From NCBI GenBank assembly GCA_041946855.1, contig JBHGBE010000003.1, positions 47,662 through 111,661 on the forward strand: a DNA stretch of 64,000 bases, given 5' to 3'. This document shows, one piece after another, positions 3,088 to 51,612 of the stretch; the stretch's first letter is position 1; the number at the start of each line of letters is the position of its first letter. Origin of the DNA: Phycisphaerae bacterium. Its GTDB lineage: Bacteria; Planctomycetota; Phycisphaerae; SM23-33. Both the position numbers and the translations under genes were made by a program. A model generated the notes under the pieces. The model did no database searches and was not told where the DNA came from. It saw only the letters and a list, made by a program, of their open reading frames with translations.

Positions 3088-3411
3088 ATGTTCGGCGACA
3101 TTGGAAAGATGTTCAAGCTGGCCGGCGAGATGAAGCGGAAGATGCCCGAAGTGCAGGCGAGGCTGGCCTCCAGCACTTACACGGCCGACGCCGGCGGCGG
3201 GGCGGTGTCGGCCACAGTCAACGGCAGGCTGGCCCTGGTGGATGTGAAAATCGCCCCGGCCGTCCTGGCCGACTGCGACGCCGCCATGCTCGAGGACCTG
3301 GTCAAGGCCGCCGTGGCGGCCGCTCAGGACAAGGCCGCTCGCGCCGCCGCGGAGGCCATGAAGGAACTGACCGGCGGTATGCCTCTGCCTGGGCTGGAGG
3401 GGATGTTCTGA
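3088..3411 (+). CDS. ybaB: Nucleoid-associated protein YbaB/EbfC
   Basis: The protein is 107 aa with the typical YbaB sequence and lies between dnaX and recR. Confidence 0.85.
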   Translation: MFGDIGKMFKLAGEMKRKMPEVQARLASSTYTADAGGGAVSATVNGRLALVDVKIAPAVLADCDAAMLEDLVKAAVAAAQDKAARAAAEAMKELTGGMPLPGLEGMF

Positions 3412-4011
3412 TTGGCCGGATATCCGCACATAATAGAACGTCTCATAGCGGAACTCGGCCGCCTGCCCGGCATAGGGGCGCGGTCCGCCGAGCGGCTGGC
3501 GTTCCACATCCTCAAGACGACGGATGTCGAGGCGCTGGGCCTGGCCGACGCCATCCGCGACGTGAAGACCAAGGTTCGCCCATGCACGCGGTGCTTCAAC
3601 ATCGCCGAGGGCGAGCTTTGCGACATCTGCGCCGACCCGCGGCGCGACACGAGCGTCTTGGCGGTGGTCGAGCAGCCCAAGGACCTGCTTGCGCTGGAAT
3701 CGACCGGGGCGTACCGCGGCCTCTACCACGTGCTGATGGGCCACATCGCACCGCTTGAGGGCGTGGACGCCGAGCACCTGACCATCGACGCGCTGGTGGC
3801 CCGCGTCAAGGCCGGCGGCGTCAGCGAGATCATCCTCGCCACCAACCCCAACGTCTCCGGCGACGGCACGTCGCTGCACATCGCCTCCCTGCTGGAGCCG
3901 CTGGGCGTGAAGATCACGCGCTTGGCCCGCGGCCTGCCCGCCGGCGGACAGATCGAGTACGCCAGCAAGTCGATACTCACAGACGCGATCACGGAGAGGA
4001 AGAAGCTGTGA
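3412..4011 (+). CDS. recR: Recombination protein RecR
   Basis: The HhH motif, the C4 zinc finger CTRCFNIAEGELCDIC and a Toprim domain are present. The start is TTG, overlapping the ybaB stop. Confidence 0.95.
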   Translation: MAGYPHIIERLIAELGRLPGIGARSAERLAFHILKTTDVEALGLADAIRDVKTKVRPCTRCFNIAEGELCDICADPRRDTSVLAVVEQPKDLLALESTGAYRGLYHVLMGHIAPLEGVDAEHLTIDALVARVKAGGVSEIILATNPNVSGDGTSLHIASLLEPLGVKITRLARGLPAGGQIEYASKSILTDAITERKKL

Positions 4012-13712: not shown

Positions 13713-13770
13713 GCCCTTCGCCTGCGCATAAGATTTGATGGATGGGAGAAGCGGAAAGAGGAGTGTAGTC

Positions 13771-14145
13771 ATGGACAAGAGCAGCACAGGCACGGCCGTG
13801 AGCGAGCTGGGCCGCAAGCAGTGCCAGCCGTGCGCCGCGGGGACGGCGGCCCTGTCGGGCGAGCGGCTGGATGAGATGCTGGCCCAGGTGCCGCAGTGGC
13901 AGTGCGTCGAGAACTCCACCAAGATCACCCGCACGTACAAGTTCGCCGACTGGGGCGGGGCGGCCGACTTCGCCTGCCGCGTCGCCGACCTGGCCGACCG
14001 CGAAGGCCACCACCCCGACATTCACCTGTCGTGGGGCAAGGTCACCATCGACCTGTCGACCCACAAGATCAAGGGACTCAGCGAGAACGACTTCATTCTG
14101 GCCGTCAAGATCGACCAGATGCTCGAGGGCTCCGACCTGGAGTGA
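13771..14145 (+). CDS. 4a-hydroxytetrahydrobiopterin dehydratase (pterin-4-alpha-carbinolamine dehydratase, PCD/DCoH)
   Basis: The signature EGHHPDIHLSWGKVTIDLSTHKIKGLSENDFILAVKID is present. A GGAG ribosome-binding site lies upstream of the ATG at 13771. Confidence 0.8.
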   Translation: MDKSSTGTAVSELGRKQCQPCAAGTAALSGERLDEMLAQVPQWQCVENSTKITRTYKFADWGGAADFACRVADLADREGHHPDIHLSWGKVTIDLSTHKIKGLSENDFILAVKIDQMLEGSDLE

Positions 14146-25377: not shown

Positions 25378-25518
25378 CAGAAGGCAAAAGGGGCGAGGGA
25401 CTAGCGACCAGGTGTCGCGGAGAGCGCTCACGTCTCGCATTCCAGCCGAACATCGATACCCCAAGTCGCTAATCGCTAATCCCTAGTCCCTTGCCCTCCA
25501 TGGCCATATAATTCCGGC

Positions 25519-26331
25519 ATGAACGCCAAGCTCCTCCGCGAACTCTTGGTCCAGGTTTCCGCCGGGCGGATGGATGTCGATGCGGCCGTGGCGCGGCTGC
25601 GGCACATGCCGTTCGAGCAGGTGGGCTTCGCCAACATCGACCACCACCGGGCGATCCGCTGCGGCTTCCCGGAGGTGATCTACTGTCCCGGCAAGTCGAT
25701 CGAGCAGATCGTAGGCATCTTCAGTCGCCTCGCGGCCGCCAGCGCCAACGTGCTGGCCACGCGTGCGACGCGCGAGGCGTATCAGGCCATCGCGGCAGAA
25801 CATCCCAAGGCCGAGTTCCACGAGTTGGCGCGTGCGATCACGCTGCGCCAGTGCGACCACAAGCCTGTGGGCCACATCGCGGTGGTGACGGCCGGGACGA
25901 GCGACCTTGCCGTGGCCGAGGAGGCCCGCGTGACGGCCGAGATCATGGACCAGCGCGTGACGACGCACTACGACGTGGGCGTGGCCGGCCTGCACCGGTT
26001 GCTCGCCCGGAGCGAGCAGCTCCAGCAGGCCAACGTCATCGTCGTGGCGGCCGGCATGGAGGGTGCGCTGGCCAGCGTGGTCGGCGGCCTGGTGGCGGTG
26101 CCGGTGATCGCCGTGCCGACCAGCGTGGGCTACGGCGCGAGCTTCGGCGGCCTTGCGGCCCTGCTGACCATGCTCAATAGCTGCGCATCGGGCGTGAGCG
26201 TGGTGAACATCGACAACGGCTTCGCGGCCGGTTACATCGCGGCGATGATAAATCGGCAGACGGCAGGCAACGGGCAACGGGCAACTGGCAACACAAGAAA
26301 GCAACAAGTGCGAAGGGGACGGAACGCATGA
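25519..26331 (+). CDS. larB: Nickel-pincer cofactor biosynthesis protein LarB-like (PurE/AIR carboxylase-related)
   Basis: A PurE-like fold (HIAVVTAGTSDLAVAEEA...VIVVAAGMEGALASVVGG) with an N-terminal extension is typical of LarB. Confidence 0.65.
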   Translation: MNAKLLRELLVQVSAGRMDVDAAVARLRHMPFEQVGFANIDHHRAIRCGFPEVIYCPGKSIEQIVGIFSRLAAASANVLATRATREAYQAIAAEHPKAEFHELARAITLRQCDHKPVGHIAVVTAGTSDLAVAEEARVTAEIMDQRVTTHYDVGVAGLHRLLARSEQLQQANVIVVAAGMEGALASVVGGLVAVPVIAVPTSVGYGASFGGLAALLTMLNSCASGVSVVNIDNGFAAGYIAAMINRQTAGNGQRATGNTRKQQVRRGRNA

Positions 26332-26390
26332 AGACGAAAGATTCTCTTGCTTGTCGCTACGGCTTGACGCCCTTATAATTGAGTGTTGAT

Positions 26391-26582
26391 ATGGGAAACG
26401 CAATCGTAATCAAGGTTCCGAGCCGCAGAAGCCGCATCCTTGCCATGCGCTCGCCGATGGATACGGAGGTCGTCGCCCACGGAAATGATCTGGATAAGGT
26501 TCTTGAGAAAGCCGCGAAGGCCGGGGTAAAGGACCCGATCATCATGTTCGTACCCAGGCCTGGCAGACGGCACACCTACTGA
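26391..26582 (+). CDS. Small DUF5678-like protein
   Basis: The protein is 63 aa with EVVAHGNDLDKVLEKAAKAGVKDPIIMFVP. The likely promoter is TTGTCG-17-TATAAT, 11 nt before the ATG, so the transcript is nearly leaderless. The gene lies in the low-GC islet. Confidence 0.35.
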   Translation: MGNAIVIKVPSRRSRILAMRSPMDTEVVAHGNDLDKVLEKAAKAGVKDPIIMFVPRPGRRHTY

Positions 26583-26587
26583 CAAAC

Positions 26588-27049
26588 ATGCCTAGTTACA
26601 AGTACTCCTTCGTCAAGTGTCGTTACGCCAATGGCATAGTTGACGAGAGAGGCCAGACGTTTGTCCCCGTTCGCATCACGAATCCGTCAACAGGCGTCTG
26701 GCGAATGGCATGGGGATTGATAGACACGGGCGCGGAGTCCTGTCTGTTTCCCGCCAATCTGGCCGCAAAGCTTGGACATGTCCTGAAGGCCAAGGGCGTC
26801 AAGGCAAGCGTAGCCAGCGGGATTGAGGAAAGGCCTGTCACCACGTAAAAGCATACCTTCCGGGTCGAGCTTATGTCGAAGGACCTGCAAAGGGTGGTCT
26901 GGCGGTCCGGCAAAATGGAAGTAGACTGCGCCGAATGCAACTCCCTAGTCATACTTGGCGTGGACAACCTGTTCGCATCGTTCAGGTTAACGATAGACTA
27001 CCCTAAGGAAGTCATGCGTTTCCAGTGGCAGCGGGCGATAGGGAAGTGA
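26588..27049 (+). pseudogene. Retropepsin-like (clan AA) aspartic protease interrupted by an in-frame TAA at 26846-26848
   Basis: The D-T-G active site LIDTGAESCLF is present. A C-terminal motif LVILGVDNLFASFRLTIDYPKEV continues in the same frame after the stop. The region has low GC. Confidence 0.55.
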
Positions 27050-27063
27050 GTCGAGTTCTTCCG

Positions 27064-28020
27064 ATGGGCGTCGAGAGAGTAACCTCTGTTCCCAGACTTC
27101 CAGCGCGTGCCGCCGACGCAAACAAGGGCAGTTTCGGGCGGGTGCTGATCGTCGGCGGGTGCAGGAAGATGTCCGGCGCGGTGGCGCTGGCGTCGAACGC
27201 GGCGCTGCGCGGCGGGGCGGGGCTGGTGGAGTTCGCGGCGCCGGCCGTCGCGCACCCGATCATCGCGGGCCTGTGCCCCTGCGCGGTGTCGCTGCCGCTG
27301 GAGTGCGACGAGCACGGCGAGATTTCTCCGGCCGCTCTGCCGCAGGTCCGCGAGCGTTTCGAGAAGGCCACGGTCCTGGCCGTCGGGCCGGGGTTCGGCG
27401 TGGGAGTTGTCCAGCGGAATATCGTGCAGGCGGCGCTGGAGCAGGAAAAGCCAGCCGTCATCGACGCCGACGGCCTCAATAACCTGGCGAAGATCGAGGA
27501 CTGGCCTTTGCTGCGCAATTGCCCGCTGATCCTGACGCCCCATCCGGGCGAGTTCTCGCGCCTGACGGGCAAGACGATCCGGGAAATCCAGGACGATCGG
27601 GAGAGAATCGCTGTAGAGACCGTCAGGAAATGGACTGCTCGTAGTGTGCCCGTAAGGGCATCCGCTCGCAGCGTGCCCGCAAAGACATCGAAGAACTCCT
27701 TACGGCGTCACTACGAACGCGGATGCGAAGTCGTGCTCGTCCTCAAGGGCGCTGGCACGGTCGTCACCGACGGCCGGCGCGTCTACATCAACAAGACCGG
27801 CAACCCCGGCATGGCCACCGGCGGCACCGGCGACGTGCTGACCGGCCTGACGGCCGCCCTTATCGCCCAGCACCTCGAACCGTTCGACGCCGCGTGCCTG
27901 GCCGTTCATCTCCACGGCCGTGCGGGCGACCTGGCGGCGGAACAGCTCGGCCAGACATCACTCATCGCCTCGGACCTGATAGACTTCCTGCCCGCCGCGA
28001 TCAAAGAAGTTCTGCTATAA
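27064..28020 (+). CDS. nnrD: ADP-dependent NAD(P)H-hydrate dehydratase (YjeF C-terminal family)
   Basis: GSFGRVLIVGG, LKGAGTVV and GMATGGTGDVLTG are present. Confidence 0.8.
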   Translation: MGVERVTSVPRLPARAADANKGSFGRVLIVGGCRKMSGAVALASNAALRGGAGLVEFAAPAVAHPIIAGLCPCAVSLPLECDEHGEISPAALPQVRERFEKATVLAVGPGFGVGVVQRNIVQAALEQEKPAVIDADGLNNLAKIEDWPLLRNCPLILTPHPGEFSRLTGKTIREIQDDRERIAVETVRKWTARSVPVRASARSVPAKTSKNSLRRHYERGCEVVLVLKGAGTVVTDGRRVYINKTGNPGMATGGTGDVLTGLTAALIAQHLEPFDAACLAVHLHGRAGDLAAEQLGQTSLIASDLIDFLPAAIKEVLL

Positions 28021-46884: not shown

Positions 46885-49032
46885 ATGCGGAAGGCGAAAG
46901 GAAAATCGAACGGCGGATTGCGGACGGCGGAACGCGGACGCGCGCCTGCATTCCTGGCCGCTGCCGTCGTGACCGTCGCGGTCGTCGCGGCATACTGGAA
47001 CAGCTTCGGCGGCTCGCTGCTCTTCGACGACCGGGCGTTCATCCTGAAGAACCCCAACATCGGCAAGCTCTGGCCGCCGGGCGAGGCATTCGATCACCTC
47101 TGCGCCGCCATGCGGCCGACCGTCGATTTCACATTGACGCTCAACTGCATATTCAGCAAGGCGGTTGACACGGGCCTGGATGTCCACAAGCACCAGCCTG
47201 GCTACCACGAATGGAGCTACCACACCGTCAACCTGGTCATCCATCTGCTGGCGGCGCTGACGCTGATGGGGATCGTGCGGCGGACGCTAATGACGCCGAA
47301 GATGATCGGCCGGTTCGGCCGGGCCGCCTTCTGGCTCGCGCCGGCCGTCGCCGTGCTGTGGGCGGTACACCCGGTCCAGACCGAGTCGGTCACCTACATC
47401 ATCCAGCGGGCCGAGTCGTTGATGGGACTGTTCTACCTGCTGACTCTGTACTGCGTGATACGTGGCGCTGGCGCAACGCGCGAAGACGCGAAAAGGGGAG
47501 GAGGGGAGGAGGGGAGGATTCCGGACACGAGACCGGCCCGTCTTTCCTCCTCTCCTCCCGTCCTCCCGTCCTCCCGTGCTTCGGCCCCCCGGTCCTCCCG
47601 AAGCTCGGCGTGGTACATCCTTGCCATCACCGCGTGCGCGCTGGGAATGGGCAGCAAGCAGGTGATGGTGACCGCGCCTCTTGTGGTGCTGGCCTACGAC
47701 AGGATGTTCCTGGCCGGGTCGTTCGGCGAGGTCTTCCGCCGGCGATGGAGGCTCTATGCCGGCCTGGCGGCCACGTTGGGCATCGTGATTGCGCTGCTGG
47801 CTGTCTACCCCACGGGCGAATCCGTCGGATCGGCGCTGGCGGCGTCGGGCATCACGCCTATCACCTATGCGGCGACGCAGTTCGGCGTCGTCGTCCACTA
47901 CCTGCGCCTGGCGGTCTGGCCCCATCCTCTGTGCCTGGACTACGGCTGGCCCGTGGCGGGCACGCCATGGGCAGTCCTACCGCCGGCATTGCTCATCGTC
48001 GCCCTGCTCGGCCTGACGGCCTGGGCGCTGGCCAAGGGCAGGCCCGCGGGCTTCGCTGGCCTGTGGTTCTTCCTGATCCTCGCCCCTACCTCGACCATCC
48101 TGCCGATCCAGGACCTTATCTTCGAGCACCGCGTGTACCTGTCACTGGCGGGCGTGATCGCGTTTGCGGCCATTGGCGGATACTGGCTGGCGACCTTGCT
48201 GGCAGGCCGAATGAGCCGGCGGAGGGCGGGCCAAGGCAGCCAGTCGTCCGGTCCCGCACAGTCCGAAATCCGAAATCCGAAATCCGAAATCGCCTCCACG
48301 CCCCGCGCCGTTCGCATAGGGTGCATCGCCGTGACCACGGCTCTGGTAATTGTCTTCGTCGTCCTGACCCATCTCCGCAATCGCGCCTACGCCGATGACG
48401 TGGCGATGTGGTCGGATGTGGCCGCCACCCACGGCCATCACGCCCGCGGCCACTACCAGTATGGCAAGGCGCTGTCCAACCTCGCCGACGACCTGGCCGC
48501 CGAGAACAGGGCGGGCGATGCGCAGCGAGTCTATCGCCAGGCCGCCGATGAGTACCGCGCGGCCGTCAGGATCGACCCGAACTACGCTGACGCCCACTAC
48601 AACCTGGCCAACATGCTCCTCCAGCGGCCCCACGAGCGTGACCCGCAGGCGCGGAAGAGGGATCGGGAGGAGGCCAAGGAACACTACCGGCAGGCGTTGC
48701 GAGTGTGGCCCACCCGCGCCGAGGTCTGGGACAACTGCGGCATCGCCTACTACCTGGACGGGCAGTTCGACGAGGCGATCCCGCGCCATCGGAAGGCCAT
48801 TGAGCTTGATCCGCATTTCGCCAACCCGCACAACAACCTGGGCGTCGTGCTGATGGCGAAGGCGCAAGGAACCGCCGACCCGGCCCTGAGGAAGTCACTT
48901 CTGAACGAAGCCCTGAGGAACTTCGAAGGGGCCGCCACATTGCCCAAGGCCAGCGGTGACATCGCCAAGGTTCGCCGCAGCGCGGAGGCCAACGCCCAGG
49001 AGGTCCGCCGCCTTCTTGCCTCCTCACCCTAG
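46885..49032 (+). CDS. TPR-repeat membrane protein (DUF1736/TMTC/PMT-like N-terminal TM domain plus C-terminal TPRs)
   Basis: AYWNSFGGSLLFDD is followed by multiple TM helices and C-terminal TPR repeats (AHYNLANMLL, AEVWDNCGIAYYLDGQFDEA, HNNLGVVL). Two low-complexity repeat elements are in frame. The start is uncertain (46840 or 46885). Confidence 0.6.
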   Translation: MRKAKGKSNGGLRTAERGRAPAFLAAAVVTVAVVAAYWNSFGGSLLFDDRAFILKNPNIGKLWPPGEAFDHLCAAMRPTVDFTLTLNCIFSKAVDTGLDVHKHQPGYHEWSYHTVNLVIHLLAALTLMGIVRRTLMTPKMIGRFGRAAFWLAPAVAVLWAVHPVQTESVTYIIQRAESLMGLFYLLTLYCVIRGAGATREDAKRGGGEEGRIPDTRPARLSSSPPVLPSSRASAPRSSRSSAWYILAITACALGMGSKQVMVTAPLVVLAYDRMFLAGSFGEVFRRRWRLYAGLAATLGIVIALLAVYPTGESVGSALAASGITPITYAATQFGVVVHYLRLAVWPHPLCLDYGWPVAGTPWAVLPPALLIVALLGLTAWALAKGRPAGFAGLWFFLILAPTSTILPIQDLIFEHRVYLSLAGVIAFAAIGGYWLATLLAGRMSRRRAGQGSQSSGPAQSEIRNPKSEIASTPRAVRIGCIAVTTALVIVFVVLTHLRNRAYADDVAMWSDVAATHGHHARGHYQYGKALSNLADDLAAENRAGDAQRVYRQAADEYRAAVRIDPNYADAHYNLANMLLQRPHERDPQARKRDREEAKEHYRQALRVWPTRAEVWDNCGIAYYLDGQFDEAIPRHRKAIELDPHFANPHNNLGVVLMAKAQGTADPALRKSLLNEALRNFEGAATLPKASGDIAKVRRSAEANAQEVRRLLASSP
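47494..47578. repeat. Inverted purine/pyrimidine heptamer arrays (ggggaggaggggaggaggggagga ... tcctcctctcctcccgtcctcccgtcctccc), intragenic and in frame
   Basis: Direct reading shows the arrays. Confidence 0.8.
48262..48292. repeat. 7-nt tandem array (tccgaaa x4), intragenic and in frame
   Basis: Direct reading shows the array. It encodes SEIRNPKSEI. Confidence 0.8.
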
Positions 49033-50565: not shown

Positions 50566-51612
50566 CTACAGGCCGTATCGCTCGGCGAGGTAGGCCAGCC
50601 AATTCCGATCTGCTCGCTGACTCGCCTTGATGCGTTCCATTATCGTCTCAACGTTGATGTGCTTCATGGGCGAAACGCCTCGCAGAGACGCGTTCCAGGC
50701 ATCCTCCACGGTGGGACCAAGGCAGCGATGGGCGGCAGGGAGTTCGTGAAGCGATTCATTCCCCGCAAACCCGACCGAGGCAACATAGACTTCATCCGCG
50801 CCTTCATGTTCTCGGCAGTAAGCAGCCAAGACGTACTGGCGCATCAACTGGTAGAAAGGCCCGATGAACGGGCAGCCCTTCAGGCCCCGGAACGCCGAAA
50901 GGTCTATGTGCGCATCCTTGAGATGCTCCCAATAGCGTCGCGTGTTCCTGCCGTGAACAAGATAGCAGACTGACGCTGGATCACCCGACGCGTCTAGGTT
51001 CTCGCAAAGATGCTTCTCCATGTTGCCGTCGGAGGAATACCCGCCGCACGTGCCGTAATTGCGTTCCGTGTATTTCCATTCGATGAACGTCAGAAGTCGC
51101 TGACTGCCGTTAGTCCACCAGACGGCGGCGTCTATGCTCGTGCGGTTCTGGCCGCGTTGGCCGCCAGTTGGTTCACCAAGCCATTGCGTGGCCCCGTCGC
51201 CGTCAGGCCCGGTGTACTCGAACTCGATCCGGGATACCTCTCTTACCCCTGGAAGTGCTGGCTCCAAGGCGGTTCCGGCAAGCTCCAGGTCCAGGTGGAG
51301 CGGGAACAACACATTGAAGCAACATGCCTGCGAACTTCTGAGGTTGGAGAACTCGGAGTGTACTGCGATATTGCTGGTACGGCAGTACTCCATTGCCTTG
51401 TCGGCTATGCCTGAGTATAGAGCGTTGTCAATATCGGGCAGGATGTGCGGATAAGTGTCGTTCTTCCTCTTGGCCCAAGCGCCATCGGGTAGGTCGGGCC
51501 AGTGTTTGCGCTTGAACCTTATCTGCCTGCGCGTTTCTTGTTGCTCAAAACCGTTCAGTCGCCCAAACCAATCGCTGGGGCCATCTTCGCCCGGCAGAAC
51601 GTGCTTTGTCAT
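50566..51612 (-). CDS. Hypothetical protein with a possible PD-(D/E)xK-like motif
   Basis: The ORF is 348 aa. TSIDAAVWW...TFIEWKYTE resembles D...ExK. GC is lower (about 57%) than the surroundings. There is no confident family match. Confidence 0.3.
   Translation of the reverse strand: MTKHVLPGEDGPSDWFGRLNGFEQQETRRQIRFKRKHWPDLPDGAWAKRKNDTYPHILPDIDNALYSGIADKAMEYCRTSNIAVHSEFSNLRSSQACCFNVLFPLHLDLELAGTALEPALPGVREVSRIEFEYTGPDGDGATQWLGEPTGGQRGQNRTSIDAAVWWTNGSQRLLTFIEWKYTERNYGTCGGYSSDGNMEKHLCENLDASGDPASVCYLVHGRNTRRYWEHLKDAHIDLSAFRGLKGCPFIGPFYQLMRQYVLAAYCREHEGADEVYVASVGFAGNESLHELPAAHRCLGPTVEDAWNASLRGVSPMKHINVETIMERIKASQRADRNWLAYLAERYGL

Follow-up and report, generated by a model that had tools for sequence, protein, structure and literature searches.

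The genes larB and nnrD, which adjoin one another in many Planctomycetota, are separated by a short islet of low guanine-plus-cytosine (GC) content in the genome of a Phycisphaerae bacterium. We studied this islet within a stretch of 64,000 nucleotides (nt) of the metagenome-assembled genome (MAG) GCA_041946855.1 (contig JBHGBE010000003.1, forward-strand positions 47,662 to 111,661), which is referred to below as the window and is numbered from its first letter. The islet contains an intact gene for a 63-amino-acid (aa) protein of the DUF5678 family and, directly downstream, a gene for a retropepsin-like aspartic protease whose reading frame is broken by one in-frame TAA. We hold with high confidence that this is an inserted cassette whose protease has become a nonsense pseudogene, and with only slightly less confidence that the islet as a whole is a foreign cassette of two genes, self-contained, placed in the same orientation as the operon that received it and carrying a protease that is no longer functional here. 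The islet copy itself is ordinary; what goes beyond it is the pairing at the level of the family. Judged by its sequence distribution, DUF5678 together with this retropepsin family forms an as yet unstudied mobile pair with near-obligatory linkage.

The evidence for insertion comes from the organization of the same site in other genomes. A scan for LarB in one genome per species yielded 80 larB loci; the best LarB match among them reaches only 78% identity, which places the source genome outside this set. In about 30 Planctomycetota loci among the 80, larB is followed immediately by nnrD with 10-120 nt between the two genes, and neither DUF5678 nor a protease of this family is present in any of the 80 loci. 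At the nucleotide level, the window is 78-84% identical to its three closest loci (L006, L005 and L007) up to 26255-26264, and homology to them returns at 27077-27122, inside nnrD. Since some 30 relatives carry larB directly followed by nnrD, about 800 nt appear to have been inserted in the window. We place this inserted low-GC segment at approximately 26262-27063 (no strand assigned), on the basis of the loss of homology, its GC fraction of 0.546 and the relatives' junction of only 10-120 nt. The original prediction, made from the letters of the window, had described a horizontally acquired module between larB and nnrD and had proposed a comparison with orthologous islets in other genomes; the tight junctions without a cassette and the abrupt break in homology bear it out. 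The genes named on either side were also recovered in a Pfam scan, which identified larB by its AIRC domain, nnrD by its Carb_kinase domain, and the downstream genes for a Lar_N protein and a PHP protein. The native left flank is the larB core (25519-26250, + strand), 60-78% identical to Planctomycetota LarB, and the native right flank is nnrD (27064-28020, + strand), which encodes NAD(P)HX dehydratase (Carb_kinase, 183 bits), is syntenic with larB and ends in TAA.

The islet also differs from its surroundings in composition. From the position after the larB stop (26331) to that before the nnrD ATG (27064), the GC content of 26332-27063 is 54.6%, as compared to a mean of 66.0% for the 64 kb window (standard deviation 3.0%, sliding windows of the same size). 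It is the lowest-GC stretch of the window, and only 0.08% of sliding windows are equally low. The predicted drop in GC was therefore found, whereas the figure of about 50% attached to it was slightly too low. A deviation in codon usage had also been proposed as a check, and it is present in every coding piece of the islet: GC at third codon positions (GC3) is 0.70 in the DUF5678 gene, 0.66 in the N-terminal half of the protease and 0.74 in its C-terminal half, all below the minimum of 0.788 among 45 long high-GC3 open reading frames (ORFs) of the window (mean 0.865, standard deviation 0.040). The insertion probably begins within the 3' end of larB, because the tail of this ORF is both low in GC3 and over-long. 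Its last 27 codons have a GC3 of 0.52, as compared to 0.91 for the larB core, and the protein continues for 24 aa after the INR motif, whereas LarB relatives have 5-19 aa there. This non-homologous tail (26251-26331, + strand), which ends in TAGNGQRATGNTRKQQVRRGRNA and extends past the usual LarB end, thus probably belongs, judging from its sequence, to the inserted DNA or lies at its edge. One result weighs against an insertion, namely that no target-site duplication, inverted repeats or integrase or recombinase gene was found at the islet ends, where there are only short repeats at chance level.

The first gene of the cassette (26391-26582, + strand, stop codon TGA) is intact. Its 63-aa product scores 33.2 bits against Pfam DUF5678 (PF18929), above the gathering score of 23.2 bits, and its GenBank entry from the Phycisphaerae MAG (MFB3890687.1) is named 'DUF5678 domain-containing protein', which agrees with the assignment made originally. 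The invariant or near-invariant family residues G31, A18, A41 and P55 are all kept in the window protein. Across the family, the DUF5678 proteins that accompany the protease are about 62-66 aa long, have one invariant glycine and end in a conserved C-terminal segment, ...P-V-x-x-F-V-P-x6-I-Y; individual Pfam DUF5678 matches were obtained for 32 of 40 non-redundant partners, the window protein included. A word-indexed homologue search with the single window protein returned itself as the sole match. A single-sequence AlphaFold model of DUF5678 reached a predicted local distance difference test score (pLDDT) of 61.6, too poor for a fold search, and profile matches in the PDB to TALE repeats were rejected as spurious, a product of summed repeat scores.

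The protease ORF starts at 26588, 5 nt downstream of the DUF5678 gene. Its N-terminal 86 codons (26588-26848 with the premature TAA, + strand) are 56% identical to P0002, an intact protein of 147 aa, and the 66 codons that continue in frame after the TAA (26849-27049, + strand, with the TGA stop at 27047-27049) are 58% identical to it. The two halves are split by a single in-frame TAA just as originally described, with the Asp-Thr-Gly motif in the N-terminal half (26588-26845) and the C-terminal half running from 26849 to 27046 before its TGA. The catalytic Asp-Thr-Gly codons occupy 26723-26731 (+ strand), within a DTGA motif (residues 46-49, window 26723-26734) that is invariant in 68 aligned intact members; the motif reads DTGAE in the window and DTGAD in 68/68 intact relatives. 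The C-terminal half keeps the conserved H, W, C and LG residues and the DY motif. When joined across the stop, the window protein scores 22.6 bits against Asp_protease_2 (PF13650), just below the gathering score of 24.3, in an alignment that spans the stop; P0002 scores 21.7 bits, and 22 of 40 family members match this profile at E<=0.01.

P0002 is the only close intact homologue (56% identical overall) and comes from three JGI metagenome contigs. A word-indexed search with the single window protease gave two matches, whereas an exhaustive profile search gave 399 representatives (E<=1e-3) with a typical length of 138-149 aa, and a profile search of 90% clusters gave 944 at E<=1e-5, with source names that span Planctomycetota, Bacteroidota and other groups. 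The AlphaFold2 model of P0002 (pLDDT 95.4) is matched by Foldseek with probability 1.0, over the whole chain, to APRc and to the proteases of Rous sarcoma virus (RSV), human T-lymphotropic virus 1 (HTLV-1) and human immunodeficiency virus, which confirms, at the level of a predicted structure, that the intact homologue has a retropepsin fold across the whole domain. The family is best regarded as an unnamed one within clan AA, with Y6, NP32-33, DTGAD, H64, H89, C114 and LLG as its defining positions. His64, His89 and Cys114 (P0002 numbering) are near-invariant in it; to our knowledge their equivalents are not features of retroviral proteases, and they might bind a metal, make up a redox site or have a regulatory role.

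The premature stop lies at 26846-26848 (+ strand), at a codon that was ancestrally TAC or TAT for tyrosine. The homologous locus L001 reads ACG TAC AAG CAT where the window reads ACG TAA AAG CAT, so that one transversion at 26848 is enough to account for it; at the protein level, ...ATYKHT... in P0002 aligns with ...TT(stop)KHT... in the window, and the column of the stop is a conserved tyrosine or tryptophan in the T-Y-x-H motif of the family alignment. None of the 76 complete homologous ORFs contains an internal stop (they come from 80 metagenome loci, the rest being cut by a contig end); the search for public DUF5678-retropepsin pairs that had been suggested, together with a check of their intactness, therefore gave 76 uninterrupted protease ORFs out of 76. 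Because the retropepsin match covers the whole chain, residue 87, which falls in a long central β-strand of the P0002 model (E83-96), lies in the middle of the fold, and an 86-aa product would therefore be without half of it; the missing part contains the conserved LLG segment and the final strands, where retropepsins dimerise. With the TAA at codon 87 of about 150, the window copy has no uninterrupted ORF that encodes both halves of the monomer. It also deviates at D50E, in a column that is 100% Asp, and at P120L and F128L, positions that are conserved in 94-100% of intact members. Over 18 columns that are at least 93% conserved, the window thus has three deviations, whereas 48 of 68 intact members have none and only one has three. 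These extra substitutions at near-invariant residues indicate relaxed selection. We conclude from these comparisons that the protease of the window is most likely a pseudogene produced by a true nonsense mutation and not a recoding site.

The stop had been left open as a recent inactivating mutation, a sequencing error or a recoding site, and only the first of these stands up well. An error in sequencing or assembly, or a minority allele, behind which the real gene would be intact with TAC or TAT at 26846-26848, is improbable in our judgement. The source is a MAG, a single base separates the TAA from the tyrosine codon of the homologue, and the downstream half retains all motif residues, each of which would suit an error. 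However, an independent Logan assembly of run SRR29307520 agrees fully with the window over 1730 nt (100% identity), TAA included, although this contig may share reads with the MAG, a point that counts against our reading in that the match excludes an assembly artefact better than a minority allele. D50E, P120L and F128L would also be unusual in a functional copy, and neither protease half has an NCBI protein accession in the collection, whereas the neighbouring DUF5678 protein has one. The TAA is therefore very probably not a sequencing or assembly error. There is even less to be said for a split protease, in which the 86-aa N-terminal fragment and a 58-aa fragment started at ATG 26873 would assemble non-covalently: the ATG-initiated 58-aa ORF (26873-27049) spans most of the C-terminal half and both pieces are predicted by gene callers, but the break falls inside the long strand E83-96 of the model, eight residues including the invariant His89 are lost between the TAA and the ATG, and no other family member is split in this manner. 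Least credible of all is programmed recoding, read-through or an altered genetic code that would yield the full-length protease, for although the codons downstream of the stop remain in frame and the C-terminal half matches P0002 at least as well as the N-terminal half does (58% and 56% identity), no complete homologue has a stop there or elsewhere inside the ORF, TAA also serves this genome as an ordinary stop, terminating nnrD and one other long ORF of the window, an Rfam scan found no RNA family in the islet and no structure signal was found near the stop, and UAA-A is not known to be a leaky context in bacteria.

Beyond the window, the two genes are found together almost without exception. 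In 72 of the 73 metagenome loci where 200 nt or more precede the protease, an ORF matching the DUF5678 profile lies immediately upstream on the same strand; the sole locus without one is L147 (2966-3400). The two genes are separated by a median distance of 4 nt, and in 12 pairs they share 1 nt. An intact pair is present in the cultured Ferruginibacter lapsinanis (CP086063.1; 5801-6456 of locus L172), beside IS1595 transposase genes, and in Candidatus Euphemobacter the pair lies in an island with ParE, BrnT, M78-HTH, SMODS, Vsr and methylase genes. On IMG/VR contigs, which are classed as viral, it is located on the opposite strand between the lambda-family portal and gpA terminase genes in a moron-like position; this placement is seen at L166 (3788-4504) and also at L150, L165, L167 and L168. 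At L169 the pair adjoins a protein with a PBECR2 nuclease domain. Searches of PHROGs gave nothing significant, and literature searches on DUF5678, on retropepsins with toxin-antitoxin systems or antitoxins, and on PDC-M52 found nothing relevant.

A small gene in first position, a 4-nt gap, sites in defence islands and as phage morons, and a patchy distribution together fit a type II toxin-antitoxin or abortive-infection system. We therefore consider, by analogy, that a toxin-antitoxin-like or defence mechanism may operate in the intact pairs, a proposal that we put forward tentatively and with somewhat less than even confidence. In intact copies, the protease dimer would be the effector and the co-translated DUF5678 protein its cognate partner or regulator. 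The arrangement that we consider most likely resembles a toxin-antitoxin pair: DUF5678 would inhibit the protease by offering it the conserved C-terminal ...FVP-x6-IY tail. Such a module would spread as a selfish or conflict-related cassette, and loss of the effector with retention of the small partner, as seen in the window, would be the decay pattern expected of it. More doubtful is the stronger form of the proposal, namely that the pair constitutes an undescribed toxin-antitoxin or abortive-infection class, spread across many phyla and phages, in which an aspartic protease toxin is curbed by a partner of 63 aa and of which the window holds a decayed copy with the 'antitoxin' only.

The likeness to type II toxin-antitoxin systems, such as the BrnT/BrnA pair found at L034, extends to several features. 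A small upstream gene is followed by a larger one, with 4 nt between them or 1 nt shared, some loci have promoter-like sites upstream, the distribution is patchy and crosses phyla, decay occurs by loss of the larger gene, and the pair occurs in defence and toxin-antitoxin islands, beside insertion sequence elements and in phages. In contrast to those systems, DUF5678 has no recognisable helix-turn-helix (HTH), ribbon-helix-helix (RHH) or AbrB domain, and we know of no toxin of a toxin-antitoxin system that is an aspartic protease. Several results weigh against the proposed system. Pfam scans of DUF5678 proteins found none of these three DNA-binding domains, which are typical of type II antitoxins. 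At L136, the DUF5678 gene (674-820) has an in-frame deletion of 48 nt (16 aa) that includes the invariant glycine, while the protease protein is identical in sequence to that of L133, where DUF5678 occupies 691-885; such a deletion beside an intact protease argues against strict essentiality of an antitoxin. In a plasmid collection, tblastn gave no match for the protease or for a DUF5678 member, and in a cultured-phage collection it gave none for the protease. Lastly, three family members show weak similarity (E 4e-4 to 3e-3) to the PADLOC model PDC-M52B, which has about 139 positions, in alignments of just 30-60 residues around the N-terminal and DTG region; DUF5678 itself had no match in PADLOC. 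Membership in PDC-M52 was rejected, as the matches are partial and to the B model alone and DUF5678 is unmatched.

The principal alternative is that the module is genuine but not toxin-antitoxin-like. The protease would then be a non-toxic accessory enzyme, with roles such as peptide processing, phage morphogenesis or regulation, and DUF5678 its substrate, pro-peptide or assembly factor. The lack of a recognisable DNA-binding domain in DUF5678 and the L136 deletion variant both speak for it, as does the presence of the cassette inside phage structural regions. On the other hand, many unrelated chromosomal contexts contain the cassette by itself, its strand in the phage contig is opposite to that of portal and terminase in the manner of a moron, and the tight, antitoxin-first architecture with defence-island neighbours fits a conflict system better. 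We regard an accessory protease as rather unlikely, and retain the toxin-antitoxin-like or defence mechanism as the working proposal for the intact pairs.

Among characterized proteases, the closest likenesses are to single-domain enzymes of other bacteria. APRc (RC1339) of Rickettsia conorii (PDB 5c9b, 5c9f) has a single retropepsin domain with a DTG(A) motif and provides the best structural matches of the P0002 model (TM 0.6-0.7), whereas sequence identity to it is only 17-19%; the Rlo enzymes of Pseudomonas aeruginosa (PMC12239564) likewise have a single retropepsin domain and a DTG(A) motif. APRc is embedded in the membrane (PMC4140852) and the Rlo enzymes are secreted (PMC12239564). In contrast, proteins of the window family are about 145 aa long and have no N-terminal extension beyond the protease fold, although signal peptides and membrane segments were not specifically tested for, and the family further differs from APRc and Rlo in its extra conserved His64, His89 and Cys114 and in its obligatory DUF5678 neighbour. 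Retroviral proteases and the RVP domain of Ddi1 (Pfam RVP, gag-asp_proteas and Asp_protease_2; clan AA) share the fold and the catalytic motif, and a profile search matched the HTLV-1 and RSV proteases as well as Ddi1 (E-values 2e-4 to 6e-3); unlike these, the window family is not encoded in a polyprotein or in a ubiquitin-like architecture. The NCBIfam families TIGR03698 (DTGF) and TIGR02281 (DTGA) also comprise small prokaryotic clan AA proteases, but membership in either was rejected, with scores of 12.7 and 12.3 bits as compared to cut-offs of 57.35 and 57.95, respectively.

The cassette appears to carry its own promoter. A candidate sigma-70-like promoter, TTGTCG-17-TATAAT, lies at 26351-26379 (+ strand) with 10/12 matches to the consensus, and its -10 hexamer is separated from the ATG at 26391 by 11 nt; both sequence and spacing are as first reported. 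Such promoter-like sites number 2 in 2.5 kb, as compared to 0.3 +/- 0.5 in shuffled sequences. A -10 hexamer so close to the ATG would be expected to leave a leader of about 4-5 nt that has no Shine-Dalgarno sequence, and a leaderless, or nearly leaderless, transcript of the DUF5678 gene of the window is plausible from the sequence. In related cassettes, promoter-like sites within 80 nt upstream of the DUF5678 gene occur in 16 of 48 loci, as compared to 95 of 960 shuffles (10%). Five of these cassettes have TTGAC[A/G], 17 nt, a -10-like hexamer (CATAGT, CATAAT or CATACT), 6 nt and then the ATG; this classical leaderless geometry lends comparative support to the near-leaderless idea, though not proof. 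A perfect 12-nt inverted repeat (CTTGACGCCCTT / AAGGGCGTCAAG) joins the -35 region of the promoter (26363-26374) to the KGVK codons of the protease (26792-26803). A repeat of this length was reached in 3/1000 shuffles, and its role as a functional element was rejected, as it is absent from seven related cassettes. In the L101 cassette, the -35 region consists of the 13-mer CTTGACGCCCTTA, which is shared with the repeat region of the window. A search of 25500-28000 gave no + strand terminator-like site, and the cassette of the window has the orientation of the operon; its promoter may therefore contribute to transcription of nnrD and the Lar_N gene.

The junction between larB and nnrD looks like a permissive site that is a recurrent insertion hot spot in Planctomycetota. 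Other cargo at this junction includes a BrnT toxin with its partner (a BrnT/BrnA pair) at L034 (8444-8933, - strand), a Fic gene at L057 (6761-7885, + strand) and a tRNA-Asp gene at L007 (6931-7017, + strand). At L021, the junction holds an unrelated retropepsin-like gene of 130 aa (3114-3506, - strand; Asp_protease_2, 28.1 bits); that a different retropepsin should occur there is a curious coincidence. The immediate succession of larB and nnrD in about 30 Planctomycetota genomes (window 25519-28020; loci L005-L071) suggests that NAD(P)HX repair may be functionally connected with the pathway that makes the nickel-pincer cofactor from a nicotinate nucleotide. The Lar_N ('larA') and PHP genes of the window are beside nnrD in none of the 80 larB loci. 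Directly upstream of the cassette, the larB tail contains short tandem repeats, GGCAAC(G/T) heptamers at 26266-26292. About seven copies of a 14-nt unit (GGGAATAGGTCGTA) lie at 630-720 of L001, directly upstream of the cassette of that locus, and the two sets of repeats have no homology to each other. Elsewhere in the window, the second-lowest GC region (about 0.56; 50566-51612, - strand) encodes a 348-aa REase-ARP / PD-(D/E)XK nuclease (127.6 bits) and is probably another horizontally acquired gene; a further low-GC patch (about 0.58; 13735-14145, + strand) contains a pterin-4a-carbinolamine dehydratase gene (Pterin_4a, 100.6 bits).

For the genome that carries it, the window copy matters little, as it is a small acquired cassette in which the larger gene is dead. 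The interest lies in the hundreds to thousands of intact DUF5678-retropepsin pairs, with their near-obligatory linkage, their toxin-antitoxin-like architecture and their presence in defence islands and phage genomes. If the protease were a toxin or defence effector, aspartic proteases would join the known effector chemistries of prokaryotic conflict systems, and a function would be assigned to a domain of the DUF series. Experiments could start from the intact pair of the cultured Ferruginibacter lapsinanis (CP086063.1).

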